64,000 bases of DNA from Akkermansia sp. (GTDB taxonomy: Bacteria; Verrucomicrobiota; Verrucomicrobiia; Verrucomicrobiales; Akkermansiaceae): the NCBI GenBank assembly GCA_017546445.1, contig JAFYWX010000002.1:23620-87619 (forward strand), in the 5' to 3' direction. Under the pieces are notes generated by a model. That model was not told where the DNA came from and ran no database searches. It saw only the letters and a program-made list of their open reading frames with translations. Shown here piece after piece: positions 1 through 64,000 of the stretch (positions within the stretch are counted from its first letter, which is position 1; the number at the start of each line of letters is the position of its first letter). The position numbers were made by a program, and so were the translations under genes.

Positions 1-104
1 TTGAATTTATATGGATTATTGCGGTGTCTCCCGATGCCTCTATTTGCTTTGCTTCTTTCCGTTATCAGAAAATTTAAGGATAAGCACACCCACTCTCCGT
101 CCTG

Positions 105-1229: not shown

Positions 1230-1239
1230 TTCCTGCGCC

Positions 1240-2397: not shown

Positions 2398-2491
2398 AAC
2401 AGGCGCTATTCTACTCCCACCCCGGCACAAAATCAAGCTAAATGGGGCGATTTAGCTTGCCAATTCTGCGGCTTGGGTGTACTCTCTGCAC

Positions 2492-2882: not shown

Positions 2883-3458
2883 TTAATCCTGAATTGAGGG
2901 ATGTTGTGAGATATATTCCGACACCGCAGACGGAAGCCATCCTTCGGGTATGGGACGGCGCGCAGTAATCGCCTTGCGTATGGCGGAGGATGAAGCTTCG
3001 TGCAGGCCTGAGCAGATGAAGGTGCTGCGCACATGCTCGCGGGGCGTGGGGGGAGTATCGCGGTGGTACACGATGAAGTGCAGCATTTCACAGAGGTAGT
3101 CATAGCGGGCCCAGCGGTGCAGCTGTTCCCACTGGTCGGTTCCCATGAGCCAGTATAACTCTGCCCCGGGGTGCTGCTCCCGCCAGAGCTCGGCCACACG
3201 CCAGCTCCAGCTGGGTGGCGGCAGTTCTATATCCAGAGTACTCACCCGGGCCCAAGGCAAATGAGCCGTAGCCAGGTGAAGCATCTCTACACGTTGGGCG
3301 TCTGTAAAATATGTAGACTTCTCCACCTTGAACGGCGAGCAGGCCGCCGGGAGAAACACCAACTCATCCAACCCGCATTCGCGCTGCGCCGCCGCGGCAA
3401 TAGCCAGATGCCCGCTGTGCACCGGGTCAAAGGAGCCGCCGAACAGACACGTCTTCAT
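2883..3458 (-). CDS. nadD: nicotinate-nucleotide adenylyltransferase
   Basis: MKTCLFGGSFDPVHSGHL (the (T/H)xGH nucleotidyltransferase motif) and the expected ~190 aa length. Confidence 0.9.
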   Translation of the reverse strand: MKTCLFGGSFDPVHSGHLAIAAAAQRECGLDELVFLPAACSPFKVEKSTYFTDAQRVEMLHLATAHLPWARVSTLDIELPPPSWSWRVAELWREQHPGAELYWLMGTDQWEQLHRWARYDYLCEMLHFIVYHRDTPPTPREHVRSTFICSGLHEASSSAIRKAITARRPIPEGWLPSAVSEYISQHPSIQD

Positions 3459-4151
3459 TTACAGACCACTGGTGTTCTTATAAGGCAGGAAGCCGCCGAT
3501 GGGAAGCTTGACAAACTTCTTCTCCACGGGCAGACGGCGGTAATGCTTGATGAATTCGCTCAGATTGCCGTAATTGGCGGCATTTTTGGGAATACCCTGG
3601 TGGCCGCAATTCACCAGCACGTTGAAGTGCAATTCAGCATGCAGATGCGCGGTGAACATACCGTCATTCGTGCCGATGGTGCCCACCTGAGCACCACGCC
3701 CGACCAACTGACCCAAGCGCACATCAATGCGGTCCAGGTGAGAGTACAGCGACTGGCAGCAAAGTACCTTGCCGCTCTTCGGCTCGCGGAACGCATGGCG
3801 CACAATCACCACCTTACCCCAGCGGCCACGGGCATCTGCAGCATAGGTAACCAGCCCCATACCAATGGAATAGACGGGATCTCCCAGGTCAGAATTACCG
3901 CCTCCCTCGCCATTCCAGTCCTCGCCCAGATGGCGCGGGGTAGCCAGGCGCAAGCCGCGGGACTTATAGTACCCCTTCCCATCCGGCTTACCTACAGGAA
4001 AATCAAAACCATCTGCCAGCGGCACAAACGCCCACTTGCCATCCGGCGTCTTCTTCGCCATGACGATAGCATTCGCTTGCGCACCAAGGCCTGCAACAAG
4101 CAGGGTAGTCAGTAGAAACAGATAACGAAGCAAACGCAGCATGGGGCACAT
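3459..4151 (-). CDS. secreted M23 (LytM-type) metallopeptidase
   Basis: Signal peptide LLRYLFLLTTLLVAGLGAQA. HxxxD (HLGEDW) and HxH (HLHAELH) zinc-ligand motifs of peptidase M23. Abuts the nadD start. Confidence 0.8.
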   Translation of the reverse strand: MCPMLRLLRYLFLLTTLLVAGLGAQANAIVMAKKTPDGKWAFVPLADGFDFPVGKPDGKGYYKSRGLRLATPRHLGEDWNGEGGGNSDLGDPVYSIGMGLVTYAADARGRWGKVVIVRHAFREPKSGKVLCCQSLYSHLDRIDVRLGQLVGRGAQVGTIGTNDGMFTAHLHAELHFNVLVNCGHQGIPKNAANYGNLSEFIKHYRRLPVEKKFVKLPIGGFLPYKNTSGL

Positions 4152-4260
4152 GCTATCACACAGGGTGGCCGGCTGGCAAGCTCCAAAAACGGCATGTTGA
4201 CATTATTCGTATACGCACTTCCTGCTTGTGTGGCCGGGGTAACATGCTACAATAGCTGCC

Positions 4261-6087
4261 ATGAAGCTTCATCACACTCCCCTCATGGTGCTACTTGCAT
4301 GCGCATTAGTGTTGCCTGGGTGCCGTCCTCCTTCACAAGGCCATGCCAGTCCTGAGGCTGCAGAGGAATTGGCGCAGATTACGGCAATCCTGCCGGAGGT
4401 GGGAGTGGAAGAAGTGCTGGAACTTCCTGATGCTGAAGATATCTTTACCCTGGTGGCAGCATTCGGGGTAACCCCCGATGCGCGACAAGCCGCCGCTAAT
4501 TCCGGCATCACCATGCTGCATCTGGCTTGTCTGTTCAAGAAGCCGGAGCTTGCCCGCTGCCTGCTGCTAGACCACGCGGATCCCAATACTCGCAGTGTAA
4601 CGGGGGATACACCGCTGAGTCTTGCCGTTGCCATACGTGGTGTTGAGGATGAGAGGGTAACGGATGACACCATTATCGCGCTCCTTGATATCCTTCTGGC
4701 AGGAGGAGCCGATATTCATGCGGCAGCACCGAATGAGATGCCTCTGCTGAATTATGCAGGTTTAAGCAGTTACAGTGAAAAAATCTTTCTCTATCTGCTG
4801 GATAAAGGCTGCAAGCCGGATGCTGTAACCTGCCAGGCACCTGCAATGATGGGTTGGAATACGGCGCTTCAACGCGTGCTGCATATGGGAGCAGCCAAGG
4901 CGCCTGAGGAAATGGACGCACTTCTGCTCATGGCTGCAGCAAATCTGCACAAGGATACAGTGGAGCTGCTGCTCAATGCCGGGGCAGATGTCAATGCTCA
5001 GCGGATGGCCGGCACAACGCCGCTTCTGGAGGCTGCCGGACACCTGCTTTCCCCGGCGGAAGAAGAAGAAAGCGAGCGCAAGGCCGCCATCCTCGATATC
5101 TGCGCGCTGCTCATTCAGCGCGGTGCAGACCCTCAACTGGCAGAAATACGCCAGGATGGCTCACCCGCCTTCAGCGCCACAGATATTCTGACCAGGGACA
5201 GCGAAACCATAGAGGAGCTTAGAAAACGCGGCGTGGACCTTACCCCGCCGGAAATTACCTACACCAGCGGCATAGCACTGCTGGAGGCCATAGGAAAAGC
5301 CACTGTTCTGGAGCAGGTTCCCCCGGCAGGCGCGTTCGATGCCATCGCCACTGCGCTTACCCCCACAGAGGAGATGTACAAGCACCCGGGCTACCATGAT
5401 ATTCTGCCCATGGCTGTGGAACTGCTGCATGGAATTGATGCAGCCAGGGCATCACAACACGTGGCGGCTATGCTCCTCTGGACAGGCGCAGAAGCCTGGG
5501 AAAAGGGCCATGGAGACTGTGTGCTGCCCGCCATTACGAAATGCGAAAACATTGTGCTGCCCAAGCAGATTATCTGCACCACGGCCGAGCATCTTGCCAA
5601 GGCTGGTAAGGTAGACAATGCAGCCTCCGTTATCGAGCTTCTTTCCCGCTGCCCGGATGCGGAGGCGGAAATTAATCAATATTGCCAGCATGAATCCACC
5701 GCGCTTCGGGCGGGTGCGCTCGGGGCAAAGCTCCGCCGCGCAGGCCTCCCCACGCCGCGAGATGGCGATGTGCAGCTCTGGCTGGAAAACCACAATCGCA
5801 CTGCCGATTCACCTGCAATGCAGAAAGCCGTCCTGCTGACCTCGCTCTCCCGCCTGTGGTACGGCGATATGCTGCCCGGTGAGCAGGAGCAGATGCTCCG
5901 CGCCATGGAGGAAATTGGTGCCACTACAGCGGCCGTCCGCTACCGCGCCATTGTGGCAGCCATGGATGACCCCGATGAACTGGATAAGCTCACAGAGGAT
6001 AGCGATTCCTGGAAATTTGAGCTCGAAATCGCTACGGCTCAGTTTATCCTCAGGAATGCCGCGGCATTTAGAACAGCTGCCCCTTAA
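4261..6087 (+). CDS. ankyrin-repeat lipoprotein
   Basis: Signal/lipobox-like MVLLACALVLPGC. Several ankyrin units, e.g. GITMLHLACLFKKPELARCLLLDHADPNTRSVTGDTPLSLAV and LLMAAANLHKDTVELLLNAGADVNAQRMAGTTPLLEAA. Confidence 0.7.
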   Translation: MKLHHTPLMVLLACALVLPGCRPPSQGHASPEAAEELAQITAILPEVGVEEVLELPDAEDIFTLVAAFGVTPDARQAAANSGITMLHLACLFKKPELARCLLLDHADPNTRSVTGDTPLSLAVAIRGVEDERVTDDTIIALLDILLAGGADIHAAAPNEMPLLNYAGLSSYSEKIFLYLLDKGCKPDAVTCQAPAMMGWNTALQRVLHMGAAKAPEEMDALLLMAAANLHKDTVELLLNAGADVNAQRMAGTTPLLEAAGHLLSPAEEEESERKAAILDICALLIQRGADPQLAEIRQDGSPAFSATDILTRDSETIEELRKRGVDLTPPEITYTSGIALLEAIGKATVLEQVPPAGAFDAIATALTPTEEMYKHPGYHDILPMAVELLHGIDAARASQHVAAMLLWTGAEAWEKGHGDCVLPAITKCENIVLPKQIICTTAEHLAKAGKVDNAASVIELLSRCPDAEAEINQYCQHESTALRAGALGAKLRRAGLPTPRDGDVQLWLENHNRTADSPAMQKAVLLTSLSRLWYGDMLPGEQEQMLRAMEEIGATTAAVRYRAIVAAMDDPDELDKLTEDSDSWKFELEIATAQFILRNAAAFRTAAP

Positions 6088-6135
6088 ATTCCAGGTTGAC
6101 AGACGGGACGATTTGCTTTAGATTTATTAAAGCCA

Positions 6136-7422
6136 ATGAGCATCTGCCGCACAGCTTTATTTTCCTTCATCACAACGGGTCTGGCCATGAGTCAGGAGCC
6201 TGCTCCCACCTCGCAGTCACAGGAAGGTATACGGCTTCCTCAGCTGCTGGATACCCTGCACCTGCCCGATGAGGATGAGAATGGAGACACGCTGCTTATT
6301 GCCCTTGCCCGGGTAGCCAGCAGCCTTCCAGCTTCATCCCGGGGTCAACTGCTGGAGCCACTGCTTGAGGAAATGCTCCGCGAAGGGCACGACCCTCTGC
6401 ATGAGAACAAGTCCGGCTGTAATGCTGTGTTTTACCTGGCAGCCATGCCGGATTTCTACAACAAGCTCCAGGCGAACAATCTGTTGCCGCGTGAGCTGGC
6501 GTTGCGTATTCCTCACGAGGAGGGCCCCCTGCTCCGCTATATGAGATTGCGCAATAGTCAGGCCTTGCTTTCCAAATCTCCCGGGAGCCATGATTACCTG
6601 GTTCGGCGTTATTGCACGCCAGCCTTTGAACGGGCCCAGCGGTTAGTTCAGAATTACCTTGCAGCTCCCGCTCTTTCTGCCATTCCCACCGGGGCGTTGA
6701 GCGACTGCCTTACCTTCATGCATCTTGCCAGCCCACAGGCCGCAGAGGGGTTCATCAATTCTCTCACCCTATGGGAACACGGTGAGCATTTTCTAGAGGA
6801 AATTCCGGCACATCTGCTTATCACGCTGCACAGCATGGGGTGGAATGTTAACCCTGAGCTGCTGCGCAAGGCCCTCCATAAGCTTGGCACCATGCTTCCT
6901 ATCAGCAAGGATGACATGATAGAATGTGCTGCATCGGCCCCCATGTCCCGCATCCTTGAAATGCTGACTAATAGCGAAGGCCAGGGGGCCATGCCTGAAC
7001 TTCAGCAGTATGCCGAAGCCTTTGACCCGGAAATCGTACATACGGCTCTGGTGCTGCAGATGAAACTGCAGGGCTTACCTATTCCCTGGGATGCCGCGTT
7101 CCTCAGTCTCACGCACCCGGAGGCAGTGCAGATTCGCGAGACGCTCAGGGTGGATGCCACCATACGTTATGGGCATATGGATAAGCTCACCGCCCAGCAG
7201 ATTACAGATGCAGTCGCAGTATTGCGCCAGCATAACATGCCGCTTCACGCGGATATGCTGGAAGGTATTGTAGCCAGAGACGCAATCATTCTTCGCCCCG
7301 AGTTACGCCCGGCATTCCGCACCCGGTATGAAGAGCTCCGGGAAGCGGCTCCGCATGTTGCGCTTCTCCGCTACCTGATGGAACACCAGAATCTGCTTAT
7401 CACCGGGGAGGCTGCGCAATGA
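6136..7422 (+). CDS. hypothetical secreted protein, weakly ankyrin-like N-terminal region
   Basis: Signal-like N-terminus. NGDTLLIALA...GHDPLHENKSGCNAVFYLA resembles a degenerate ankyrin unit. Same strand as, and close to, the flanking genes. Confidence 0.5.
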   Translation: MSICRTALFSFITTGLAMSQEPAPTSQSQEGIRLPQLLDTLHLPDEDENGDTLLIALARVASSLPASSRGQLLEPLLEEMLREGHDPLHENKSGCNAVFYLAAMPDFYNKLQANNLLPRELALRIPHEEGPLLRYMRLRNSQALLSKSPGSHDYLVRRYCTPAFERAQRLVQNYLAAPALSAIPTGALSDCLTFMHLASPQAAEGFINSLTLWEHGEHFLEEIPAHLLITLHSMGWNVNPELLRKALHKLGTMLPISKDDMIECAASAPMSRILEMLTNSEGQGAMPELQQYAEAFDPEIVHTALVLQMKLQGLPIPWDAAFLSLTHPEAVQIRETLRVDATIRYGHMDKLTAQQITDAVAVLRQHNMPLHADMLEGIVARDAIILRPELRPAFRTRYEELREAAPHVALLRYLMEHQNLLITGEAAQ

Positions 7423-8801
7423 AGCGCGTTCCTCCTTTGTTCTGGCTGGTCATTCTGAGCCCTACCCGGGTTCATGTTATATGCGTCATTGCTGCGCTGC
7501 TGGCGTGTGTGTTCATTCTCTTTCCGGAAATAGGCCCGGCATGTACGGATGATATGCTGCAGATATATGCCGGTGGCACCCTGCTGACCGCGATGGGGGT
7601 GTCTGCACTTCTCTTTTTTATTTCTGCCGCTACTCACATGCTTCGGTTAAGTAATACCCGAGCTTTCAGTCAGTTGATAAAATGGTGTATCTGCTGGGGA
7701 TGCGGCATAGCGCTGTACGTATTGCTTGCCATTTCAGCAGACGTGCAACCACCTGATACCGAAGAGGATAAACTCGCCATTCAAAGTTCAGATCACCTCT
7801 ATGCGCCCAAGGAGCAGCTGAATGGGCCCGCCTCATTGGTTATTCCCATTGAAACAACTGCACAATCAGCAGACAAGGTGATAGACGCGCCCAACCTGAC
7901 AGCCCTGGAAAGTGAGCATGCAGAGCTTTTCCAGAATTATATTGAAAAATCACCGCGCTGGTCCGGTCAGGAAGGTGATGATACATACTACTCCAAGCCC
8001 GGGCATCTGGTGATGGTACCGCCCACAACCTCCGGCGCCCCAGGCCTGGTTCATGTCTGCTTCCGCACTCTGGTGGAAGGTGACCGACTGCCGCAGGGAT
8101 TCTCCGTTGTGCAGCCTGGTGGCAATTTTCCCGACTCTGCGGACGAGAGTAAATTTGTTTCCGATTTAGCTGTAGATCTGGGTCGGAATCACTTTCTGCT
8201 GCTGGCATGGCGCGGCAGCGCACACCGCGAGACCGCCTATAAGGCCATCAATGCGGCTATTGCCGCCATCGATGCCCGCATGCAGCCTCTGCGAGACACA
8301 CCTACAGAAGAGATGGTCGAGCGTTTGCTGAATGGCCGGGAATCCTACCCGGGCAGCACACCGGAATTCCGGCTTAGTGAACCTATTGCGCAAGAGGGCG
8401 CCTACCAGGCTGAACTATACGCAAACCCCGGCGAACCCGGCATTATTCTGGTTTATATCAAAGAACTTAAATCCAGTCGCACGCTGCGTCTCATGAGCTG
8501 CCCAGCCCGTTACTCCAACAACGACCAGGAGCTTTTCCGGCATGATTTCCCCGGCTCTATGCCAGACTGGATTCGCAGCTCTGTAGCGGGTGACGTATCG
8601 AACCTTTTCCCGGCAAATACACCGATTTTTGCCATACGCCGAGGCCCGCAGCACCAGTACTTCGGCGTTGCGTTCGAGGTATACTTCAAGCCTACGGATG
8701 TGCGTAAGCAGCAGCGCCATCTCATCCGCCGCTGCTACAAGGTTCAGGCCTATGAGCCGCCGGTGGCGGAAAGTCCGGCCGCTGACAGCCCGAAAACTTG
8801 A
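7419..8801 (+). CDS. hypothetical multi-pass membrane protein with a C-terminal soluble domain
   Basis: ATGA start/stop overlap with the upstream gene. About 3-4 hydrophobic helices in the first ~110 aa. No motif recognised in the remainder. Confidence 0.5.
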   Translation: MKRVPPLFWLVILSPTRVHVICVIAALLACVFILFPEIGPACTDDMLQIYAGGTLLTAMGVSALLFFISAATHMLRLSNTRAFSQLIKWCICWGCGIALYVLLAISADVQPPDTEEDKLAIQSSDHLYAPKEQLNGPASLVIPIETTAQSADKVIDAPNLTALESEHAELFQNYIEKSPRWSGQEGDDTYYSKPGHLVMVPPTTSGAPGLVHVCFRTLVEGDRLPQGFSVVQPGGNFPDSADESKFVSDLAVDLGRNHFLLLAWRGSAHRETAYKAINAAIAAIDARMQPLRDTPTEEMVERLLNGRESYPGSTPEFRLSEPIAQEGAYQAELYANPGEPGIILVYIKELKSSRTLRLMSCPARYSNNDQELFRHDFPGSMPDWIRSSVAGDVSNLFPANTPIFAIRRGPQHQYFGVAFEVYFKPTDVRKQQRHLIRRCYKVQAYEPPVAESPAADSPKT

Positions 8802-8835
8802 CAATACACGCATTTCCGGGCATACTTCCCGCGTT

Positions 8836-10251
8836 ATGTTACATTTACACGATACACAGACGGGGGCGGTAAAGCCAGTGCAGGCAGAAGACGGCAAGCA
8901 GCTGCGCTTCTACTGTTGCGGCCCCACTGTGTATGCCGCTGCTCATATCGGTAATTTCCGCACTTTCGTTGTACAGGACGTGTTCCGCCGTGTTGTGGAA
9001 CTGGGTGGCCTCCGTACCAAGCATGTGCGCAACCTCACCGACGTGGACGACAAGACCATCCGTAACTCTCAGGCTCAGGGTATGCCGCTGGGCGAATACA
9101 CCGCCAAGTGGACAGCCAAGTTCCATGCGGACTGCAAGGCGCTCAACTGCCTTTCCCCGCATGTGGAGCCCAGCGCCGTAGGTCACATCAAGGAGCAGCT
9201 GGATATCGTGCAGAAACTTGTAGACGGTGGTCACGCTTACCAGAGCGAGGACGGTTCCGTGTACTTCCGCATTTCTTCCTATGCTGACTACGGCAAGCTG
9301 GCTCACCTTGACCGCCAGGAGCTCGACCTGGGCAAGACGGCCAACTCCCGCGCCGATACGGACGAGTACGAGAAAGACAGCGTGGCTGACTTCGTGCTGT
9401 GGAAAGCCCGTCGCCCGGAGGACGGGCCGAACTTCTGGCCATCTCCCTGGGGGGAAGGCCGCCCCGGCTGGCACCTTGAGTGCTCTGCCATGAGCCACAA
9501 ATATCTGGGCGATACCTTTGACCTGCATTCCGGCGGCGTGGACCTGGTGTTCCCTCACCACGAGAACGAAATTGCCCAGAGCCGCTGCGCCTGCGGCGGC
9601 CACTTTGCCCGCCACTGGTTCCACGTGACCCACCTGCTGGTGGATGGGGCCAAGATGAGCAAGAGCCTGGGTAACATGTACACCCTGGACCAGCTGCAGG
9701 AGATGGGCTATACTCCCGCCGCTCTGCGCTATGTGCTGGCTGGTGCCTACTATCGCCGCCCGCTCAACTTTACCCTCACCGGTATGAAGGATGCCACCAG
9801 TGCCCTCAACAAGCTGGGTCGCTTCGACAAGGAGCTGGCCAAGGCCAGCGGTGCCAAGGAGCCCACCTACCGCGACTTCATCAAGAAAGCCCCTGCTCTG
9901 GGCGCATTCCAGCCCGCCTGGGACAGTCTGGAGGATGACCTGAACGGCCCGGAGGCCCTGGGCCACGTGTTCAGCGCCATGAAAGGCATCAAGCCTGCAG
10001 AGATGGACGCTGCCGAGGCCGAAAAGACCTGGAAAGCCTTCCGTTTCATCATGGAGGCCCTTGGCCTTCAGCTGCCGGACCCGGATGCCGATATCGAGGT
10101 GCCGGAGGACATCAAGGCCATTGCCGATGAGCGCTGGGCTGCCCGTCTGGCCAAGGACTGGGCTGCTGCAGACGCCCTGCGCGGCAAGCTGGCTGAGCTC
10201 GGCTGGGCCATGAAGGACGGCAAGGACGGCTACAAACTCACCAAAGCTTAA
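8836..10251 (+). CDS. cysS: cysteine--tRNA ligase
   Basis: CCGPTVYAAAHIGNFRTF (HIGH-type) and KMSKSLGN motifs. Start trimmed to the ATG at 8836 (MLHLHDTQTG), because the track start at 8590 overlaps the upstream gene. Confidence 0.93.
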   Translation: MLHLHDTQTGAVKPVQAEDGKQLRFYCCGPTVYAAAHIGNFRTFVVQDVFRRVVELGGLRTKHVRNLTDVDDKTIRNSQAQGMPLGEYTAKWTAKFHADCKALNCLSPHVEPSAVGHIKEQLDIVQKLVDGGHAYQSEDGSVYFRISSYADYGKLAHLDRQELDLGKTANSRADTDEYEKDSVADFVLWKARRPEDGPNFWPSPWGEGRPGWHLECSAMSHKYLGDTFDLHSGGVDLVFPHHENEIAQSRCACGGHFARHWFHVTHLLVDGAKMSKSLGNMYTLDQLQEMGYTPAALRYVLAGAYYRRPLNFTLTGMKDATSALNKLGRFDKELAKASGAKEPTYRDFIKKAPALGAFQPAWDSLEDDLNGPEALGHVFSAMKGIKPAEMDAAEAEKTWKAFRFIMEALGLQLPDPDADIEVPEDIKAIADERWAARLAKDWAAADALRGKLAELGWAMKDGKDGYKLTKA

Positions 10252-51511: not shown

Positions 51512-55027
<3,516 letters not shown>

Positions 55028-55032
55028 TACGT

Positions 55033-56199
55033 ATGAAGAAGCAAATCGTTCTCTGGTGCATTCTGGCTATTCTCGGTTTGTTAGGGGGTGGTCTCGGCAA
55101 GATGTATCTGAAACCGCAGGCGCAGGAAGAAACAGCCCCCGCAGAACAGGAGCAGAAAGCGGAGCTGGCTACGGATGCCTTCAGTATCCGTTTCTTCCAG
55201 CACGCGATTACGGAGAAAGCAAGTGGTAACATCCTGGTGGCGCCCCGCATGGTTTCGGATATGCTGCTGGTGTTGCAGGAGCACGCCGCCGGCCAGACGC
55301 TGGAGGAACTGCGGGCACTGAATCTGCAGGCCGCCAGCACCCCCCGCGCCACAGAGCCCTGCTCAGCCATGCTGCTGGCCATGGATTTCAATCTGCCTCG
55401 CAATGATGGCAACCGCGGGGTGATGCCGCTTCCCTTCTCGGAGAATGTCCCCATGGCTCTCAGCCTGTTCAACGGCACCCTGGCCAACGCCACGGGTAAC
55501 GTCAACGGGCAGCTGGCGGCCAGCCAGATGGTAAGCAACCGCACCAAACTACTGCTTGGCGGCACCCTGCACCTGAGCAAGGACTGGGAAATCGCCATCA
55601 ACCCGGCGAATGCCCGCACGGCAGGCTTTGATAATGCTTCCGGCAGCATGCCGACTATTCACCAGATGCGCACCCGCGGGCTGTATCGCACCGCCCAGGC
55701 AGAGGATGGCAGCTGGAAAGCGGTGGCTCTGCCATTCAGGAAGGACCGGGACTCCGGCAGCTCTCTGGTCTACATCGGCATCCTGCCCGCAGGGTCGGCG
55801 CGCGATTTTGCAGCCCAGCTCACCCCGGAGCAGGTAACAGCTATTCGCAAGGCTCTGGCAGACACCACGCCGCAGGATACCCTGGTCGAGCAGCCCCGCC
55901 AGGAGCTGCAGATTCTCCCCTACGATATGCGTGACACCCTGCGCCGCATGGGGCTGAAGGCCTTGTTTGACCCGGAAACAGCCGATTTCTCGCCCATCAC
56001 CTCTGAGAAAATCCAGCTCGGCGCCGCTCTTTTCTCCGCCTCCGTGTATCTGGGCGAATCAAAGGAGCAGCCCAAGGCGGATGCCGCGCTGGATTACGCC
56101 GGCAAGGTCATCTCCTTCACCCGCCCGTACATCTGGCTCATCGCCGACCTGGAGACCAGCACTCCCATCGAATTTTTCGGTTTGGTGGAGGAGCTGTAA
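55033..56199 (+). CDS. serpin-family protein (secreted or lipoprotein)
   Basis: N-terminal hydrophobic signal, NILVAPRMVSDMLLVLQEHAAGQT (serpin helix B/C region), and C-terminal FTRPYIWLIADLETSTPIEFFGLV (serpin signature). Confidence 0.78.
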   Translation: MKKQIVLWCILAILGLLGGGLGKMYLKPQAQEETAPAEQEQKAELATDAFSIRFFQHAITEKASGNILVAPRMVSDMLLVLQEHAAGQTLEELRALNLQAASTPRATEPCSAMLLAMDFNLPRNDGNRGVMPLPFSENVPMALSLFNGTLANATGNVNGQLAASQMVSNRTKLLLGGTLHLSKDWEIAINPANARTAGFDNASGSMPTIHQMRTRGLYRTAQAEDGSWKAVALPFRKDRDSGSSLVYIGILPAGSARDFAAQLTPEQVTAIRKALADTTPQDTLVEQPRQELQILPYDMRDTLRRMGLKALFDPETADFSPITSEKIQLGAALFSASVYLGESKEQPKADAALDYAGKVISFTRPYIWLIADLETSTPIEFFGLVEEL

Positions 56200-56479
56200 A
56201 TCATTCAGGCAGAACAGAGACTCACAACAAGGGCAAGGCGCCAAGCAAATAAGAATAGCACGTTTCCTCATCCTCGAGCAGCAAATCATACTGTCCGGGA
56301 GTCAGGGGAATGTATTCTGCCTGGCGCAGCAGGAATGCAGTAATCTGGAAGAAATCCGGTATCAATTTGAGCGCACTCCAGGCATGCGAACAAAACACAT
56401 GTCTCCCATAGATTTCTCTATTGACTAGTTATATGCGTCGTTTTGGAGCCAGTCCTTTCTTCATCCGCTAAATGGCGAT

Positions 56480-57085
56480 TTAGCGGGCTGATTCCGGCTC
56501 ATCATGTTCGGCTGCAGCCTTCTTCTTCTGCGCCTTCAGCCTGGCCTGATCCTTCTTGAATGCCTGAAGCTGCTTCTTCCACTCATACATATTCACGCCA
56601 CCGGATGCGCCTACAAAATTGCCATCCGCATCCACAATGCAAAGGGACGGCACACCCAGATTCGGGAACTGCACCCCGGGAATACTACCCAGCTCCGCCG
56701 GCATGACTCCAGGGATATCGATATCCCCTTCCTTCATATACTGCTTCACTGCAGCCTCATCCTCCTGTCCCAGGAAAATCAGCTCCATCCTGGCACCCTT
56801 CATCTTGCCATAATCCTTCAGCAATTTGGGCACAAACATCTTACAAGGCACACACCAGCTCGCAGAGCGCAGAAAGCCATAATACTTCGCCTTCAGATTC
56901 GGCTTCTTCCGCGTCAGATATGTACCCTTCAACAACACCTCCGCAACCGGAGATAATTCCTTCACCGCCTTCTTCTTCCCCCGCTGCACACTAGCCACCG
57001 GCACATCCACCTCCGCATCAATCTCCTGAGCATAACCCGTCAAACCGCCACACAACAGAACAAGAATCAAATGAAAAGCCTTCAT
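56480..57085 (-). CDS. secreted TlpA-like thioredoxin-fold protein
   Basis: Signal peptide MKAFHLILVLLCGG, SASWCVPCKMFVPKLL, and a Lys-rich C-terminal tail. Confidence 0.75.
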   Translation of the reverse strand: MKAFHLILVLLCGGLTGYAQEIDAEVDVPVASVQRGKKKAVKELSPVAEVLLKGTYLTRKKPNLKAKYYGFLRSASWCVPCKMFVPKLLKDYGKMKGARMELIFLGQEDEAAVKQYMKEGDIDIPGVMPAELGSIPGVQFPNLGVPSLCIVDADGNFVGASGGVNMYEWKKQLQAFKKDQARLKAQKKKAAAEHDEPESAR

Positions 57086-57200
57086 TGCCCTGAAATATAC
57101 CACACGCCCCCTGCCCCGTGCAACGCAAAAAAAATCCGCCTACCAAACCAAATTCAAAAGCTTGGATTCCGATTCCATTTCTGCTAACATACCACATGAA

Positions 57201-57326
57201 ATGGATTTAGCATTCAACATCGCCCTGATTCAAGGCTACAAAAGCCCCGCCCAGATAGCCAGACGCCTCACCGAAGACTGGCTCGCCCGCAACATGTACT
57301 ACCCCATCTGCGGCGCCGAGGCCTAA
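57201..57326 (+). pseudogene. 41-codon N-terminal remnant of a DpnI-like methyl-directed (GmATC) restriction endonuclease
   Basis: Translation is MDLAFNIALIQGYKSPAQIARRLTEDWLARNMYYPICGAEA*. It aligns, from my recollection of the DpnI N-terminus, with MELHFNLELVETYKSNSQKARILTEDWVYRQSYCPNCG. The frame stops exactly where base composition switches to AT-rich. Confidence 0.5.
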
Positions 57327-57382
57327 AGGCCGAGTACAATAGCATAGAGCATAGAATTTTCATCAGCCGAAATGTTTTCGAC

Positions 57383-57411
57383 TTGGCTTTTATAACTCAA
57401 ACGTGTATACT
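57383..57411 (+). promoter_or_regulatory. possible promoter of the methylase-endonuclease operon
   Basis: TTGGCT, a 17-nt spacer, then TATACT, about 130 nt upstream of the dam ATG. Confidence 0.35.
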
Positions 57412-57543
57412 GCGCGAGGTGTAGTGTCTACCGACTTTAATATATCTCCCAACTCCCAGCCAATAAATATGAATTATCACTCATCATTTATTTTCAAAAC
57501 AGAATTTTTCTCTCCTAATTTTCAAGCCAACTCGTAAAGCTCC

Positions 57544-58383
57544 ATGAAAGAGAACAAATTAGTAACACCTTTTCTCAAATGGGTTGGCGGAAAACGTCAA
57601 CTACTGAATGAAATTACAAGCTTTCTGCCTAAAGACATTAAGCGATTGCAGTACCACGAACCATTTATAGGAGGTGGTGCTGTTTTCTTTGCATTACAAC
57701 CTAAAAATGCGCGTATCAATGATTTTAATGAGGAATTAATTAACGTATACAGGGTCGTAAGAGACTCCCCTTCGGAACTCATTGAAAGCCTTAAAAAGCA
57801 CAAAAATTCGCACGATTATTACTACAGCATACGGGAACAAGATAGGATGCCTCTTTTCTCTGAATTATCCCCAATCGAACGGGCTTCCCGTATCATATAT
57901 CTGAATAAAACGTGTTATAATGGTTTATTCAGAGTTAACAACGCAGGTGAGTTTAATGTGCCATACGGAAAATATAAAAACCCAAATATCGTTAACGAAC
58001 CCGTAATAAGAGCAACAAGCAAATATCTCAACACAAATCAAATAGCGATATTGCATGGTGATTATGCAGAAGCATTGTCTGACATCTCAAGCAAATCCTT
58101 TGTATATCTTGATCCTCCATATCATCCGATATCCGACACATCAAACTTTACTGGATATATCCAAGGCGGATGGAATGCAGATGACCAACTGAGACTTCGC
58201 GATGTATGTATTGAACTCGACAGAAAAGGAGTCAAGTTTCTTTTATCGAATTCCTCCGCGCAAATGATTAAAGATATTTATTCAAATTTTAATATAGAAA
58301 TCGTTTGTGCCAGCAGAGCCATTAATTGTGACGCCAACAAACGTGGCAACGTGGAAGAAGTCCTTATAAGAAACTATGAATAA
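57544..58383 (+). CDS. dam: Dam-family (DpnM-like) N6-adenine DNA methyltransferase, probable GATC specificity
   Basis: FLKWVGGKRQLL, EPFIGGGAVFF (SAM binding) and DPPY catalytic motif. Colinear along its whole length with my recollection of M.DpnII (DpnM). Confidence 0.9.
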   Translation: MKENKLVTPFLKWVGGKRQLLNEITSFLPKDIKRLQYHEPFIGGGAVFFALQPKNARINDFNEELINVYRVVRDSPSELIESLKKHKNSHDYYYSIREQDRMPLFSELSPIERASRIIYLNKTCYNGLFRVNNAGEFNVPYGKYKNPNIVNEPVIRATSKYLNTNQIAILHGDYAEALSDISSKSFVYLDPPYHPISDTSNFTGYIQGGWNADDQLRLRDVCIELDRKGVKFLLSNSSAQMIKDIYSNFNIEIVCASRAINCDANKRGNVEEVLIRNYE

Positions 58384-59713
58384 AAGAACGAAGATTTCCA
58401 AGAATGATGAAGCATGGGAGCAACTTTTCAACAAACATCAGATATTAGATAAAATAAATTCTACAGGTCAATACATCATAAAAGCTGAGGAGATCAATAC
58501 AGTTAGAGAAGCTCGGCTTATGACGAAAATCGATCATGAATATCAACTTCCCAAGATTTTCAAAGACAACGGCCTCTCCATCCTTCCGATATCGCGAGGA
58601 GAGTATATCATCTCTAAAGCCCTAACCTTTACGAAAATCCAAAGTTCCCAAGATTGCAAAATCAAAGAAGTTGAGTTACCTCCGTTTCTTGAGAGCATAT
58701 CTCCTGAAAATATTACCAGCGAAGCGATTGCTCTAAATTCTGCTTACGCAGCAGGTATAATTTCTGATTTTTTAGGTGAAGATAGCACCTATCCAACCCT
58801 CAGTGGTCGAATGGGGTCGGGTGAGTTCTCTTTCGATATCCACTCGAAAGAGAAAAGCATCATAAACATCCATGTTGATAGAGCACAAATGGAAATCGAT
58901 GCCTGTTATGAAGGCGAACGTTGGGTATGTATTATTGAAGCAAAAAACTCTTTTGACGATGATTTCATTATTAGACAATTATATTATCCCTATAGAGCAT
59001 TAACCGCACGATTAAAAAAGTCTATACGCACTGTTTTTTTTACCTATTCTAATGACATATATCATTTAAGAGAGTACAAGTTTGACACACCACAAAACTA
59101 CAATTCTATTTCATTTGTAGGAGAAAAGCGCTATAGGATCAAGAGAAAAGATGAAGAAATTACAATCAACATAGAATCTATACAGAATCTAGCCAAGAGC
59201 ATCCTCAACCAGCAAGAACCAGAGGGAATTCCATTCCCCCAAGCTGATAACTTTGAACGCATCATCTATCTTTGTGAAATAATCCATCGTAATAACAGTA
59301 GATATACAAAATCTGATCTTTCAATAAATTCGGACTTTACACTTCAAGATAATTTTGACCCAAGGCAGGTTGACTATTACACAAATGCTGCTCAATATTT
59401 AGGACTTATAAGCAAGAATGTCTGTAATAAAAAGATAAGTTACTCACTGACACCCCAGGGTACAGATATATTCAATACTACAGATTACTCGAAAAGGCAA
59501 CTTCAACTTATACGGTGCATACTGGAACACTCTAGTTTCCGTGAGACATTGAATCTCTATCTACACAAAGCGGAGATACCAAGCATTGAGGAAATAGTGC
59601 AGATAATGAAAAATAGGAATCTGTACAAAGTCTCAGCCGATTCTACTTATAAGCGGCGCGCTCAAACTGTCAAGTCATGGGTTAATTGGATCGTGGGAAC
59701 AATAAATGAATAA
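58376..59713 (+). CDS. type II restriction endonuclease candidate (PD-(D/E)xK) with a C-terminal extension
   Basis: 8-nt overlap with the dam stop. EIDACYEGERWVCIIEAKNS fits D...(D/E)xK. It does not resemble DpnII/MboI or Sau3AI as I recall them. Confidence 0.6.
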   Translation: MNKRTKISKNDEAWEQLFNKHQILDKINSTGQYIIKAEEINTVREARLMTKIDHEYQLPKIFKDNGLSILPISRGEYIISKALTFTKIQSSQDCKIKEVELPPFLESISPENITSEAIALNSAYAAGIISDFLGEDSTYPTLSGRMGSGEFSFDIHSKEKSIINIHVDRAQMEIDACYEGERWVCIIEAKNSFDDDFIIRQLYYPYRALTARLKKSIRTVFFTYSNDIYHLREYKFDTPQNYNSISFVGEKRYRIKRKDEEITINIESIQNLAKSILNQQEPEGIPFPQADNFERIIYLCEIIHRNNSRYTKSDLSINSDFTLQDNFDPRQVDYYTNAAQYLGLISKNVCNKKISYSLTPQGTDIFNTTDYSKRQLQLIRCILEHSSFRETLNLYLHKAEIPSIEEIVQIMKNRNLYKVSADSTYKRRAQTVKSWVNWIVGTINE

Positions 59714-59730
59714 CAGCAGCCCGCTTCTTA

Positions 59731-60192
59731 TTACACCCCCGGTCCAAAGCACTTTTCAAAGCGTCTAACACCTTCATCATCCCACAAGCTAGGCTCAAGA
59801 ACCACTGGTATACGCAAATCTATCTTTCCAGATTCGCCTTCGGGAAGAGGATTGTTCTTATACCACTTATCTGCCATTTTTGATGCATCCGCAAATGATT
59901 CGCCATCGATGATATGCAATTTGCCAGGATGCTCCCAGCAGGGTTCAAAACAGTATTCGTCAATTCGATAGGCAGCGGCATCCTCTCCCATATAGTCAGC
60001 CAGAACATCAAATGCGCAGTATTGCCCTTGGCGAATATCCTGACAAAATTCAAAAGGGCCATCAGGTTCTTCCTGATACACTCGCTCAATGGATAAGCGT
60101 TCGCCGTCCTTGTACAGAGCCAGCATCATGTAGCGGCATCCGTTCTCATCCATGCCGCATTCAAAGTTTTTCAAGCAATAATAGTAATTCAC
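59731..60192 (-). CDS. hypothetical Cys-rich acidic protein
   Basis: 153-aa ORF with a GTG start, convergent with the endonuclease gene and divergent from the HTH gene. No motif recognised. Confidence 0.45.
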   Translation of the reverse strand: MNYYYCLKNFECGMDENGCRYMMLALYKDGERLSIERVYQEEPDGPFEFCQDIRQGQYCAFDVLADYMGEDAAAYRIDEYCFEPCWEHPGKLHIIDGESFADASKMADKWYKNNPLPEGESGKIDLRIPVVLEPSLWDDEGVRRFEKCFGPGV

Positions 60193-60369: not shown

Positions 60370-60675
60370 ATGCCGACATTGGAAAGAATCATAGAGTGGC
60401 AGAAGGCTCACGGAATCAGCCGACGGGAGCTGGCAGACATGTTACACGTGAACTACAAGGCACTCTGCCCGGTTTTGGCTGGCACCAAGCCGCTGACAGC
60501 GCGTCTAGCAGCCCGAATTGCCGATCTCATGGAACGGTACAATAACGGTCTCACAGTCACCCTTCCCCACGAGTATGAGCCACTTCTCACCACTTGGGCA
60601 GCAACTGCCAACATCAGCATCGATGAACTGGTGGCACAGCTGCTAGCAGATGCACTGAAGATTAAGCGAGGCTAA
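60370..60675 (+). CDS. small HTH (XRE-like) DNA-binding protein with a helical C-terminal tail
   Basis: HGISRRELADMLHVNYKALCPVLAG helix-turn-helix. The C-terminal ISIDELVAQLLADALK is antitoxin/RHH-like. Confidence 0.6.
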   Translation: MPTLERIIEWQKAHGISRRELADMLHVNYKALCPVLAGTKPLTARLAARIADLMERYNNGLTVTLPHEYEPLLTTWAATANISIDELVAQLLADALKIKRG

Positions 60676-60758: not shown

Positions 60759-61700
60759 TTATCTACCTACTTTTCTAGTATTCATTAATAATAAAAGTTC
60801 ATCCAAGTTTTCTCTAAATCTGTTATCATATAAAATATCAAGTATTATTTCATGTGGTATAATCTGTTTTTCAGTTAAAAAAGAACGAATTTCCTCTCCG
60901 CGTTCATGGTTGTCAGCTCCAGCAAATGTATACACAAGGAACTTCTGTGAATTAGAACAGGTGGACATTATCATCTTGGCATATTCTACAGCTTCCTCTT
61001 CATCAAAATTGTGTCGAACATATTGAAGAACATTCAACGTCGCGCCAAGCCAACGTTCTATATTTAAAAATCTGTCGTAAATATACAATTTCTTAGTTTG
61101 CAATAATTTAGCATCTTTTTCAACAGTTCGCAAAATACTTATTAAATTATTGTGAATCAATATTATTGCTCGAGTAGCTTTTTCACTAAACTCAGACTCT
61201 TGACGTCTAGCCTCAGACGAAATCGATGTATTTATACTTGCAAATACTACCGCCTCAGCTAACTGAACAACAATCGTCAGACGCTTATACAATTCATCTA
61301 TCTTTTGGCCTTTTTCAGCCAGCTCAACTTGCGCTTCAAATTGCCTAGTTTGAGCCTCACTTACCTCACGTTGCTTTTCCATTTCCTTGCGTTGAAGGGC
61401 CAAATCCTCACGCTGATTCTGTAAATCCTTTCGTTGGAGCTTTAGCTGACGTCCCTGCATGCTTAACGAATAGATAAGGGCAATAAAAGCAAACGCCGAA
61501 ACTAAAGGATTCAAAGGGCCATACATATCACCGTATGGCCCGAGAATATTCACATCCTTGCAACCAACGAAAAATCGTAAAACATAGGGGTACACACATA
61601 CTCCCACCACAACAATGATGACCGATCCTATTATGCTTAACCACATCATGACAGATGATGCATTTTCATCGCATTCCTTTTCTTGGTTGTTATTTTTCAT
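60759..61700 (-). CDS. 2-TM, coiled-coil membrane protein (candidate abortive-infection-type effector)
   Basis: Two N-terminal hydrophobic helices (WLSIIGSVIIVVVGVCVYPYVL; LVSAFAFIALIYSLSM), a long heptad region (QLKLQRKDLQNQREDLALQRKEMEKQRE...), and very AT-rich coding sequence. Confidence 0.5.
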   Translation of the reverse strand: MKNNNQEKECDENASSVMMWLSIIGSVIIVVVGVCVYPYVLRFFVGCKDVNILGPYGDMYGPLNPLVSAFAFIALIYSLSMQGRQLKLQRKDLQNQREDLALQRKEMEKQREVSEAQTRQFEAQVELAEKGQKIDELYKRLTIVVQLAEAVVFASINTSISSEARRQESEFSEKATRAIILIHNNLISILRTVEKDAKLLQTKKLYIYDRFLNIERWLGATLNVLQYVRHNFDEEEAVEYAKMIMSTCSNSQKFLVYTFAGADNHERGEEIRSFLTEKQIIPHEIILDILYDNRFRENLDELLLLMNTRKVGR

Positions 61701-61714
61701 AGTGGTATAAAAAA

Positions 61715-62224
61715 TTATGCTCCTTGCTCATCTTCATCCAAATGTCCAAACACTCGTTCTACAACAGAATCGAGTTTCTTATCGGCCTCAGCTGGGTCAA
61801 AATCTATCGGATATGCCGCCACATACGTTCCATCACGAGATTTTTCCAACACTGCATTCATCTCTCTGATATCGTATAACTGTTCGTGATTGAAAGCATG
61901 GACTATGCTCTCTCGTCCCATTTTTATCATCTCATAGGTTGAAACATCCATACGAACAGCAGCTTGCCGAATCGTTTCAAACGAATCATCAGATTCATTA
62001 TCGATGGTTGTGTACAAGCCTCTGGGACTAAACCCAAGAACTGCTGCACACCTGTTCCACCTATCTTCGCTTGGAACAGTCCGTCCATTTTTCCAAGAGG
62101 AAAGAGTGCCTGCACTTACACCTATTTTCTGAGCTATACAAGAAATTGTCTTACCCTGCAGGCACGAAGTAAGTATTACCTTCACATATGTCTTTTGGCT
62201 ATCCTTATTGTATTCTGATTTCAT
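61715..62224 (-). CDS. XRE-family HTH protein with an unassigned C-terminal domain
   Basis: GKTISCIAQKIGVSAGTLSSWKNGRTVP helix-turn-helix. Lies 14 nt upstream of the 2-TM gene on the same strand. Confidence 0.6.
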   Translation of the reverse strand: MKSEYNKDSQKTYVKVILTSCLQGKTISCIAQKIGVSAGTLSSWKNGRTVPSEDRWNRCAAVLGFSPRGLYTTIDNESDDSFETIRQAAVRMDVSTYEMIKMGRESIVHAFNHEQLYDIREMNAVLEKSRDGTYVAAYPIDFDPAEADKKLDSVVERVFGHLDEDEQGA

Positions 62225-62240: not shown

Positions 62241-62281
62241 CAAAAGATAGCGGCGCATCTACGTGGCGTAGATGCGCCGCT
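62241..62281 (-). terminator. rho-independent terminator downstream of groEL
   Basis: 15-bp perfect stem AGCGGCGCATCTACG / CGTAGATGCGCCGCT, followed on the minus strand by ATCTTTTG. Confidence 0.65.
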
Positions 62282-62493: not shown

Positions 62494-64000
62494 TTACATC
62501 ATGCCGCCCATGCCACCCATACCGCCCATGGCGTCGGCACCGGGGGCGCCGTGGCCGCAGGAGCACTTCTTCTCGGGCAGGTCGGTGATGAGGCATTCGG
62601 TGGTGAGCATGAGGCCGGCGATGGAGGCGGCGTTCTGCAGAGCGGAACGGGTCACCTTGGTGGGATCCACCACACCGGAAACGAGGAGGTCCTCGTACTC
62701 ATCGGACACAACGTTGTAGCCCATGGTGGGAGCCTCGAGGTTCTTCACCTTCTCCACAATGAGGGCAGCCTCGCGGCCGGCGTTGGCCACCAGCTGACGA
62801 AGGGGAGCCTCAACAGCGCGGTATACGATGGCAGCGCCCGTGGCTTCGTCGCCCGTGAGGTTCAGGCCGCACACAGCCTTCTGGGCGCGGATGAGGGCCA
62901 CACCACCGCCGGGAACGATACCTTCCTCCACAGCAGCGCGGGTGGCGTGCAGAGCGTCGTCCACGCGGTCCTTCTTCTCCTTCATCTCGGTCTCGGTGGC
63001 AGCACCCACCTTGATGACGGCTACACCACCGGCAAGCTTGGCCAGGCGCTCCTGGAGCTTCTCGCGGTCGTAGTCGGAAGTGGTCTCCTGAATCTGGTGG
63101 CGAATCTGGGACACGCGGGCGGAGATATCGGAGGACTTGCCGGCGCCTTCGATGATGACGGTGGTGTCCTTGGTGATAACCACGCGCTTGGCAAGGCCGA
63201 GCATGTCCACATCCACATTCTCGAGCTTGAGGCCGAGGTCCTCGGAGATGCACTGACCACCGGTAAGGATGGCGATATCCTGGAGCATGGCCTTGCGGCG
63301 GTCGCCGAAGCCGGGAGCCTTCACAGCGGCCACATTCAGGGTGCCGCGCAGACGGTTCACCACGAGGGCTGCCAGAGCCTCACCCTCCACGTCCTCAGCA
63401 ATGATGAGGAAGGGCTTGCCGCTCTTGGCCACCTTCTCCAGAATGGGGAGGAAATCCTTCAGGTTGCCAATCTTCTTCTCGAAGATAAGGATGTAGGGGT
63501 TCTCCAGCACAGACTCCATGGTGTCTGCGTTGGTCACGAAGTAGGGGGAGAGGTAGCCCTTGTCGAACTGCATACCTTCCACCACGTCCAGAGAGGTGTC
63601 GATACCCTTGGCTTCTTCCACAGTGATGGTGCCGTCCTTGCCCACCTTGTCCATAGCCTCGGCGATGATATCACCGATTTCGGAGTCCCAGTTGGCGGAT
63701 ACGGTAGCCACCTGAGCAATCTCCTTGGTGGAATCCACGGGCTTGGAGATATTCTTGAGCTCGCCCACGATAGCGGCGGCGGCCTTGTTGATACCACGCT
63801 GCAGGGAGATGGGGTTGGCGCCGGCGGTCACGTTGCGCAGACCTTCGCGGTAGATAGCCTCAGCCAGCACGGTGGCGGTTGTGGTGCCGTCGCCGGCGAT
63901 GTCGTTGGTCTTGCTGGAAACCTCGCGCACCAGCTGGGCGCCCATGTTCTCGTAAGCGTCCTCGAGCTCGATTTCCTTAGCCACAGTCACACCGTCCTTG
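62494..64000 (-). CDS. groEL: chaperonin GroEL, 5' end beyond the window
   Basis: [30 protein letters not shown], and the C-terminal [10 protein letters not shown] tail. The reading frame continues past position 64000. Confidence 0.95.

Follow-up and report, generated by a model that had tools for sequence, protein, structure and literature searches.

What a 41-codon reading frame resembling the start of DpnI, a nuclease that cuts Gm6ATC only (PMC4117772), is doing directly ahead of a Dam-family methylase gene is the question raised by one locus of Akkermansia sp. (Verrucomicrobiota). The locus lies in a stretch of 64,000 nucleotides (nt) of contig JAFYWX010000002.1, hereafter the window, and had been described in an earlier note, made from the letters alone, as the stub left by a DpnI-to-DpnII-type cassette swap. 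With a probability of roughly 0.8, the frame is the dead 5′ end of dpnI, a cassette encoding a Dam-family methylase and a restriction endonuclease replaced the rest of the gene, and the resulting allele spreads by recombination at a multi-allelic GATC locus. For comparison, 63 loci (cited below by L numbers) were collected by searching the thioredoxin-like protein encoded beside the frame against one genome per species and by scanning metagenomes with an alignment of stubs. A homology search with the 41-amino-acid (aa) stub itself gave just four proteins, all of them stubs, and full-length relatives were found by scanning the loci. Proteins identical to the 41-aa product and to the 445-aa protein encoded behind the methylase are on record from a metagenome-assembled genome of Akkermansia sp.

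The frame is initiated by ATG and translates to MDLAFNIALIQGYKSPAQIARRLTEDWLARNMYYPICGAEA followed by a stop. Its residues 1-40 correspond to positions 1-40 of the 183 in the profile PF06044 (DpnI, ‘Dam-replacing family’), with an E value of 8.1e-12 and a score of 45.6 bits, above the gathering score of 26.7. In the reverse direction, a full-length Akkermansia DpnI orthologue recovered the window stub by tblastn (E 3e-14), and the solved DpnI (PDB 4esj), which starts MELHFNLELVETYKSNSQKARILTEDWVYRQSYCPNCG, shares 21 of 41 residues with it, counted from the alignment. The G+C content (GC) of the stub is 0.57, against 0.56 in the native part of the window, and falls to 0.37 in the 217 bases directly after the stop; the next two genes are at 0.38 and 0.37. 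Nucleotide homology to seven other loci (L001, L002, L004, L006, L020, L021, and L073) stops at 57313-57319, i.e., at dpnI nt ~113-119. The earlier note had claimed about half identity to the N-terminus of DpnI, and a stub of native composition ending where AT-rich foreign DNA begins; both claims held, and the N-terminus given there agrees with that of 4esj.

The frame is a gene remnant and not a working member of the DpnI family. Ending at residue 41, it reaches none of the three catalytic residues of DpnI, Asp53, Glu64, and Lys66 (PMC4117772). From the four-Cys zinc site it retains the position of the first Cys pair only, and there the first Cys is replaced by Tyr (C34Y, YPIC), where all other stubs and the intact genes read CP.C. 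The winged-helix domain PF17726 is not present, and the stub has no function of its own. A 3′ dpnI remnant was sought at the far end of the island and elsewhere; tblastn with the full-length orthologue (word size 2, E up to 10) found no DpnI-like sequence past residue 43 in the 64-kilobase (kb) window. The lack of a C-terminal remnant there argues for replacement rather than simple insertion.

The whole gene stands at this site in relatives, as the earlier note had suggested it might. Akkermansia loci L006 and L020 contain an unbroken 256-aa DpnI open reading frame (ORF) that starts like the stub and matches PF06044 with 241 bits and PF17726 with 107 bits; end to end, the 256-aa protein aligns with 4esj at 255.6 bits. 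The same 256-aa gene is found in L073-75, in the order dnaE, serpin, two small genes, a Sel1-like gene, a 199-aa gene, DpnI, ORFs of 82 and 48 aa, Abi_2, groEL, groES, and dnaK. The window itself has dnaE, a serpin gene, and the thioredoxin-like gene on the left and groEL on the right, and between stub and groEL six genes, encoding the Dam-family methylase, the 445-aa protein, a 153-aa protein (minus strand), a 101-aa helix-turn-helix (HTH) protein, a 313-aa protein, and a 169-aa HTH protein. Since L073 matches the window with 93% identity over dnaE-serpin and 98% over groEL, a close relative has the whole gene exactly where the window has the stub. The thioredoxin-like gene is 92% identical in L003 and 82% in L073, and in other Akkermansia a Sel1-repeat gene and/or the 199-aa gene lies between it and DpnI. 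In the more distant L076-78, DpnI with an overlapping 84-aa ORF is directly beside groEL, which is probably the older arrangement.

To the right, the window is again homologous to L001 and L021, two alleles with other cargo, from 59731/59732 on, the stop codon of the 153-aa gene. The left and right limits together delimit the swapped cassette as 57321-59730, comprising a leader, the methylase gene, and the endonuclease gene, and these 2.4 kb stand in place of DpnI codons ~41-256.

Six states were distinguished at the locus, namely the intact gene and five stub alleles that differ in cargo or breakpoint. Counted from the dpnI ATG, the breakpoint falls at ~120 nt in the window, L007, and L072, followed by the DpnM-like methylase and the 445-aa enzyme; at ~123 nt (codon 41) in L001, followed by another Dam (58% identical, an intact 282-aa ORF) and a 790-aa DndB-like protein; at ~159 nt (codon 53) in L002, followed by a MutH/Sau3AI-family enzyme, a C5 methylase, and DUF6119; at ~178 nt (codon 60) in L004, where the contig ends; and at 318 nt (codon 106) in L021, followed by GmrSD, a DpnII-family endonuclease, a D12 methylase, MutH, and an N6_N4 (DpnA-like) methylase. 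Past its breakpoint each stub allele has its own tail of 0-21 unrelated residues. By its gene content, L021 is the DpnI-to-DpnII swap in the literal sense, holding a true DpnII + DpnM + DpnA cassette. The MutH-domain enzyme of L002 scored 485 bits to PADLOC REase_II and just 41.9 bits to Sau3AI, so that ‘Sau3AI-family’ is the strongest label it can be given. Four of the five cargos examined (window, L001, L002, and L021) are GATC-related, and within the locus itself an intact DpnI gene and a Dam-family gene occur together in no Akkermansia examined. The swap in the window is not unique: the locus shows, at the least, four or five different breakpoints, with five types of cargo.

The stubs of L007 and L004 differ by 10 synonymous changes and 1 nonsynonymous change, a ratio of nonsynonymous to synonymous change (pN/pS) of 0.03, and the intact DpnI genes reach 0.11 over the same 39 codons. 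Such mostly synonymous differences indicate genes that were functional until recently and were truncated independently, in somewhere between two and five events. A single ancient truncation, for example at codon ~106 in a DpnII-type allele such as L021, with later cargo replacements nibbling the stub further, is an unlikely alternative that draws on the nesting of the breakpoints (318, 178, 159, 123, and 120 nt), on the ≤3 nt between those of the window and L001, and on the 153-aa gene at the right of all Dam-type alleles. It is at odds, however, with the intact DpnI genes in both stub clades (L073 with a clade-1 N-terminus, L006 and L020 in clade 2), which are interleaved with the stubs, and with the almost purely synonymous divergence of stubs with different breakpoints (pN/pS 0.03-0.11), a sign of recent selection.

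Spread of the allele, the second part of the replacement reading, was apparent from L007, which belongs to another Akkermansia lineage and has the same junction, GGCGCCGAGGCC-TAA-AGGCCG. Its DNA identity to the window is ~78% in the thioredoxin-like gene, ~80% in the 5′ part of the stub, ~99% over the cassette (~57330-59770), ~85% in the 153-aa gene, and ~70% in the 101-aa gene, with none in the second module described below. A ~99% block ending at ~59770 between flanks of 78-85%, together with the identical junction, points to a transfer that is recent and had its left crossover within the stub. In L072, the same stub and cassette were found at 97% beside a wholly different left neighbor. While the transfer can be read from the identity profile itself, its mechanism would be homologous recombination in the flanks, which fits the rise from ~80% to ~99% within the stub and the drop to ~85% at 59770. 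Akkermansia is not known as naturally transformable.

The three different left neighbors of one junction and cassette (window, L007, and L072), and the fact that homology between pairs of alleles typically begins within a few bases of the stub ATG, would also suit a stub imported whole as the 5′ end of a mobile cassette into a lineage that never had dpnI at the site. We regard this as distinctly unlikely. In its 5′ part the stub goes with the host clade, being 96% identical to L001 and L002 versus ~78-80% to L007, to which the cassette is 99% identical; the GC of the stub is native (0.57), the relative with 93% identical flanks holds an intact DpnI at the position, and a promoter-like element is kept upstream. 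The evidence fits a crossover in a resident dpnI or stub, with only the last ~40 nt of the stub having come with the cassette. That upstream element is a putative extended −10 from the former promoter of dpnI; it reads TGCTAACAT and aligns with TGCTAGAAT, which is kept upstream of DpnI or a stub in five other loci. The consensus promoter scanner did not call it at 57182..57190, and because the scan found 13 promoter-like sites against 9.5 expected, about background, statements on promoters are tentative.

The contents of the cassette connect the replacement to GATC. For the methylase, the best solved relative is DpnM (M.DpnIIA, 2dpm; 286 bits over the full length), followed by E. coli Dam (140 bits), and in the alignment it conserves all seven residues by which EcoDam reads GATC, K9, Y119, N120, L122, R124, P134, and Y138 (PMC4417163). 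It is probably GATC-specific. The 445-aa protein matches the REBASE-derived PADLOC model REase_II PDLC03513 end to end with 358 bits. The residues D175...E188-x-K190, with PD-(D/E)xK-like spacing, are invariant over 37 homologs of 46-60% identity. Its AlphaFold model has a predicted local distance difference test score (pLDDT) of 90.4, and fold matches in PDB were weak and partial (E > 0.02), mainly to winged-helix proteins, with Cas4-type nucleases and FokI; a sequence search against solved structures gave no relative. Homologs lie directly 3′ of a 279-280-aa D12 methylase gene in two unrelated genomes, with the pair present in L066, L067, and L068, which marks methylase and 445-aa protein as a conserved methylase-restriction (M-R) pair. 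The 445-aa protein points to an uncharacterized family of restriction enzymes whose consistent partners are DpnM-like methylases.

The DpnM-like methylase and endonuclease of the earlier note were therefore both found, and replacement by a methylase of that type stood; its DpnII-type label did not extend to the endonuclease, which belongs to DUF6996/DUF6997/DUF7226 and not to the DpnII family. PF04556 (DpnII/MboI-family) was not matched by the window enzyme and was seen at the dpnI site in L021 only (347 bits). The window island also has no second, DpnA-like N6_N4 methylase, as L021 does, and no recombinase gene. Its cassette would accordingly be DpnII-like in logic but not in the ancestry of its restriction gene.

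Base composition gave a further, independent signal. In the native 57.2 kb of the window (1-57200), GATC occurs 34 times against 200 expected under a second-order Markov model (ratio 0.17), which makes it the most under-represented of the sixteen 4-bp palindromes, below CTAG. Ratios of 0.03-0.24 were obtained for every Akkermansia locus fetched (L001-L020), including those with intact DpnI; the depletion is therefore ~6-fold, genus-wide, and independent of the allele at the locus. Such depletion fits long exposure to enzymes that cut unmethylated GATC, and we infer that the alleles have cycled over time in the genus.

That the island has nothing to do with GATC, the methylase having another specificity or being an orphan regulator, the 445-aa protein being a DNA-binding regulator, and the disruption of dpnI being an incidental hit in a defense-island hotspot, is highly improbable. 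Several database records do name homologs of the 445-aa protein ‘transcriptional regulator’, the fold search returned mainly winged-helix proteins, and the locus also varies in unrelated defense genes (OLD, Abi_2, GmrSD, and DndB-like). Set against this are the 286 bits to DpnM with all seven GATC contacts kept, the end-to-end REase_II match with its invariant D...ExK, the retention of the M-R gene pair in unrelated genomes, the GATC-family components in four of five cargos, and the strong depletion of GATC. Finally, the idea of an ORF arisen by chance, or of a gene for a small functional peptide, with an incidental likeness to DpnI can be dismissed: the ATG and open frame are kept in every allele, but the match to the Pfam DpnI profile (E 8e-12, co-linear from profile position 1), the tblastn result, the DNA-level homology to full-length genes, the allele-specific sequence after the breakpoint, and the loss of a zinc-ligand Cys refute it.

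In the ancestor of the strain, dpnI codons ~41-256 and the small partner ORF that follows dpnI would have been exchanged for the 2.4-kb low-GC cassette with its own leader. Because, by the known enzymology, Dam methylation would turn every GATC of the host into a DpnI target, a Dam cassette could establish itself only if the same event destroyed dpnI, and this would explain why the cassette sits inside that gene. The same incompatibility is established as the basis on which DpnI and DpnII alternate in the pneumococcus and on which dam and drg exclude each other in Neisseria (PMC516771). The stub-plus-cassette allele would then have spread between Akkermansia lineages by homologous recombination, in which dpnI nt 1 to ~120 would supply the homology on the left and the 153-aa/101-aa genes that on the right. 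The locus would thereby set the treatment of GATC in a strain: cutting of sites with N6-methyladenine (m6A), m6A methylation with restriction of unmethylated sites, or protection of the 5-methylcytosine (m5C) type.

The right-hand side of the locus bears a scar of its own. The intact-DpnI alleles L006, L020, and L073 have neither the 153-aa gene nor codons 1 to ~33 of the 101-aa gene, and their homology to the window resumes at 60467-60470, ~10 nt past the stop of the 82-aa ORF. Each allele type therefore holds, in truncated form, a gene that the other type has whole. The two sequences common to both, nt 1-120 of dpnI and 200 nt at the 3′ end of the 101-aa gene, would permit conversion in either direction by homologous recombination, and the reciprocal truncations imply at least two illegitimate events behind the present forms.

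Several points weigh against the replacement reading or parts of it. The scar in the intact-DpnI alleles themselves points to more than one illegitimate event, and leaves the direction from intact gene to stub a probable one. The breakpoints of window/L007 and L001, ≤3 nt apart, may reflect one event with a later replacement of cargo, and hence fewer independent events. The window stub differs from those of L001 and L002 by 4 nonsynonymous versus 1-2 synonymous changes, which suggests relaxed constraint in its lineage, although the numbers are small. Evidence on the strain covers the 64-kb window, and an intact DpnI elsewhere in its genome would be compatible with it. Dam-family enzymes with specificities other than GATC exist, no characterized member of the 445-aa family was identified and its fold matches are weak, so that the GATC specificity of both enzymes and the nuclease fold of the 445-aa protein are predictions from sequence. 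Lastly, five contigs outside Akkermansia (L039, L028, L029, L037, and L048) appear to have an intact Dam-like gene as well as an intact DpnI, and such co-occurrence on one contig contradicts the expected incompatibility; the mutual exclusion of DpnI-like nuclease and GATC methylase asserted in the earlier note therefore applies to the Akkermansia loci fetched, with these five as apparent exceptions. In L039 (8307-11979), the Dam-like gene (288 aa, with DPPY and 38% identity to that of the window) is followed by KilA-N (273 aa), intact DpnI (255 aa), ORFs of 70 and 97 aa, and a 3′ fragment of an N6_N4 (DpnA-like) methylase gene, as though a DpnI module had been inserted into a cassette of DpnII type.

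The reverse scar was also observed outside Akkermansia. In 11 contigs from gut and rumen with GC of 0.35-0.51 (L022, L025, L026, L032-L034, L043, L050, L053, L054, and L061), N-terminal stubs of Dam-family methylases (residues ~1-50 to 1-75) lie directly upstream of an intact DpnI, the mirror image of the window scar and the dam-to-drg direction of Neisseria.

The coordinates of the window features are collected below.

Table 1. Features of the dpnI locus in the window, in order of position.
Feature	Position	Strand	Remarks
Thioredoxin-like gene, 207 aa	56480..57103	−	Native left flank, divergent from stub; weak Thioredoxin_8/ResA matches
Putative extended −10 of old dpnI promoter	57182..57190	+	TGCTAACAT
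DpnI 5′ stub, 41 codons + stop	57201..57326	+	Codons 1 to ~40 authentic dpnI
Left breakpoint of swap	57316..57323		dpnI nt ~116-123; homology ends, junction identical in L007/L072
Cassette leader	57327..57543	+	GC 0.37; ~99% identical to L007
Promoter-like site in leader	57383-57411	+	TTGGCT-17-TATACT, consensus match only
Dam-family (DpnM-like) N6-adenine methylase gene, 279 aa	57544..58383	+	PF02086, 238 bits; TIGR00571, 309 bits
Type II restriction-endonuclease-family gene, 445 aa	58376..59713	+	DUF6996/DUF6997/DUF7226; overlaps methylase gene by 8 nt
153-aa gene	59731..60192	−	Stop codon is right boundary of swapped cassette; homology to L001/L021 resumes there
101-aa HTH gene	60370..60675	+	HigA-like (weak); 3′ two-thirds (60467-60675) common to intact-DpnI alleles
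Second variable module, 313-aa gene + 169-aa HTH gene	60759..62224	−	Outside DpnI swap
Perfect 14-bp hairpin, probably groEL terminator	62249..62281	−	GCGGCGCATCTACG-TGG-CGTAGATGCGCCGC, downstream of groEL
groEL	62494..63990	−	Conserved right flank; TIGR02348, 766 bits

Among the right-hand genes, the 153-aa gene stands beside four different Dam-type cargos (70-89% identical between them) and is not found in the intact-DpnI alleles; its product had no match in Pfam, NCBIfam, or PADLOC. The 313-aa and 169-aa HTH gene pair recurs in L001 and L006, with DUF2971 added in L006 (1651-2571), and elsewhere the second module is replaced by an OLD-like ATPase (L007 3034-4704), Abi_2 (L073 10648-11700), or DUF6119 (L002 11063-12778). 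From 62275, inside the hairpin, the window is again homologous to L002, L007, and L073; as these alleles carry different cargo, the hairpin forms the right-hand limit of the variable region as a whole. The entire serpin-to-groEL interval behaves as a defense hotspot. Three loci fetched via the 169-aa protein (L069-L071) were considered as new alleles and rejected, being 100% identical to the window; the 397-aa endonuclease called in them is merely another start choice for the 445-aa protein.

The left flank is variable too. Of the species-representative genomes the nearest is L003, whose flank, the closest, matches window 55000-57178 with 97% identity; its homology stops at 57178, and Sel1-gatB-...-mutL follows. 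Within its 1-10000 there is no stub and no groEL nearby, and it is uninformative on the locus. The loss at 57178 does indicate that the adjacency of thioredoxin-like gene and stub in the window is a rearrangement or deletion relative to L003. In L002 (4731-6718), transposase genes of the IS66 family (TnpB_IS66 and DDE_Tnp_IS66) are found two genes left of the stub and adjoin an 86-aa fragment of the Sel1-repeat gene, and mobile elements thus add to the variability of this flank. A 28-nt motif, CCAAGCAnAAAGCnTnGGGCAAGCAAAA, was found at L002 8150-8177 (+), L006 3985-4012 (−), and L007 8568-8595 (−), in L006 and L007 ~85-110 nt upstream of DpnI or the stub and in L002 upstream of the MutH-like endonuclease gene. 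It is not in the window and is limited to these three loci, so a dispersed repeat was rejected; its role may be that of a common regulatory element or of a recombination joint. At window 57335-57350, shortly after the start of the cassette leader, stands AGCATAGAGCATAG, against one AGCATAG in L007; this small indel or duplication is among the few differences between the two cassettes.

The end of the intact DpnI gene is abutted or overlapped by a small ORF of 82-84 aa (L006 2882-3130, L020 8433-8678, L073 9773-10021, and L076 9774-10028). An ORF in the same position also follows DpnI in L053 and L054, identity being 29-44% in the distant L076, L053, and L054. The small ORF has no family match and, by its position, may be a counterpart of the pneumococcal dpnD.

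The closest known system is the pneumococcal dpn locus, whose alleles include DpnI (dpnC and dpnD), DpnIII (an m5C methylase together with a Sau3AI-like GATC enzyme), and an MjaIII-like form; in S. pseudopneumoniae, a decayed DpnI lies beside a newer system (PMC4471560). The two loci share a single chromosomal site with conserved flanks and alternative, mutually exclusive gene sets acting on GATC, and the correspondence extends to individual alleles: Akkermansia DpnI with its small ORF (L006, L020, L073, and L076) resembles dpnC with dpnD, L021 has DpnII + DpnM + DpnA, and the Sau3AI-family enzyme and C5 methylase of L002 recall DpnIII. The DpnII system of the S. pneumoniae and S. mitis dpn locus consists of dpnM, dpnA, and dpnB, and an intercellular cassette mechanism is said to have been described for the dpn locus by Lacks and coworkers in 1986. 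In contrast to that locus, the present one belongs to Verrucomicrobiota, is flanked by serpin/thioredoxin and groEL, has in the window an endonuclease from another family (DUF6996/6997/7226), and includes extra alleles (Dam + DndB-like; GmrSD and MutH passengers). It also retains the 5′ dpnI stub as an apparent homology arm, whereas exchange between flanking genes is what is described for the pneumococcal cassettes.

In Neisseria, the dam+/drg− genotype and the dam−/drg+ one are mutually exclusive (PMC516771); drg is the dam-replacing gene, and NmeBII is a DpnI homolog (PMC516771, PMC4269198). As in Akkermansia, Dam and a nuclease of the DpnI family occupy one locus as mutually exclusive alleles and the incoming gene is of lower GC, but there drg replaced dam, whereas here Dam replaced dpnI, and two described states compare with at least five. 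Neisseria drg gave PF06044 the name ‘Dam-replacing family’. The pneumococcal DpnI/DpnII precedent invoked in the earlier note is apt, and precedent is broader than was stated there (DpnIII, MjaIII-like, and Neisseria dam/drg), which makes the same swap in another phylum less surprising than it had assumed. The interval from serpin/thioredoxin to the groEL terminator further resembles defense-island hotspots in swapping OLD-like, Abi_2, DUF6119, GmrSD, and HTH modules, and differs from them in that its dpnI-proximal module is confined to GATC-acting systems and bears a diagnostic gene scar. In the single literature collection searched, nothing was found linking Akkermansia with DpnI, DpnII, or this locus, or on DUF6996/6997/7226; the Akkermansia methylation literature found concerns a different phenomenon.

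A bolder extension, which we hold tentatively and rather doubt, is that Akkermansia independently evolved a pneumococcus-like GATC switch with at least five alleles, in which the stub and the 3′ part of the 101-aa gene are a selected landing pad and DUF6996/6997/7226 are new GATC-specific endonucleases. If so, the five alleles would be DpnI, two of Dam type, one of DpnII type, and one of Sau3AI/m5C type, and the pad would let an otherwise incompatible Dam cassette replace dpnI in one recombination event.

The logic of the replacement itself will not surprise a specialist in restriction-modification, yet the case is clean, multi-allelic, and convergent, and occurs in an organism of applied importance. 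The allele at the locus should decide whether GATC is unmethylated, m6A-methylated, or m5C-methylated, and hence which incoming DNA a strain destroys. For Akkermansia genetics, plasmids from dam+ E. coli should be cut by strains with the DpnI allele and plasmids from dam− hosts by strains with a Dam/endonuclease allele, so that typing of the locus would tell a laboratory how to prepare its DNA. The locus likewise bears on gene flow and phage susceptibility between co-resident strains. For evolution, it would represent a convergent, multi-allelic counterpart of the pneumococcal dpn cassettes in an unrelated phylum, with a long history reflected in the depletion of GATC.

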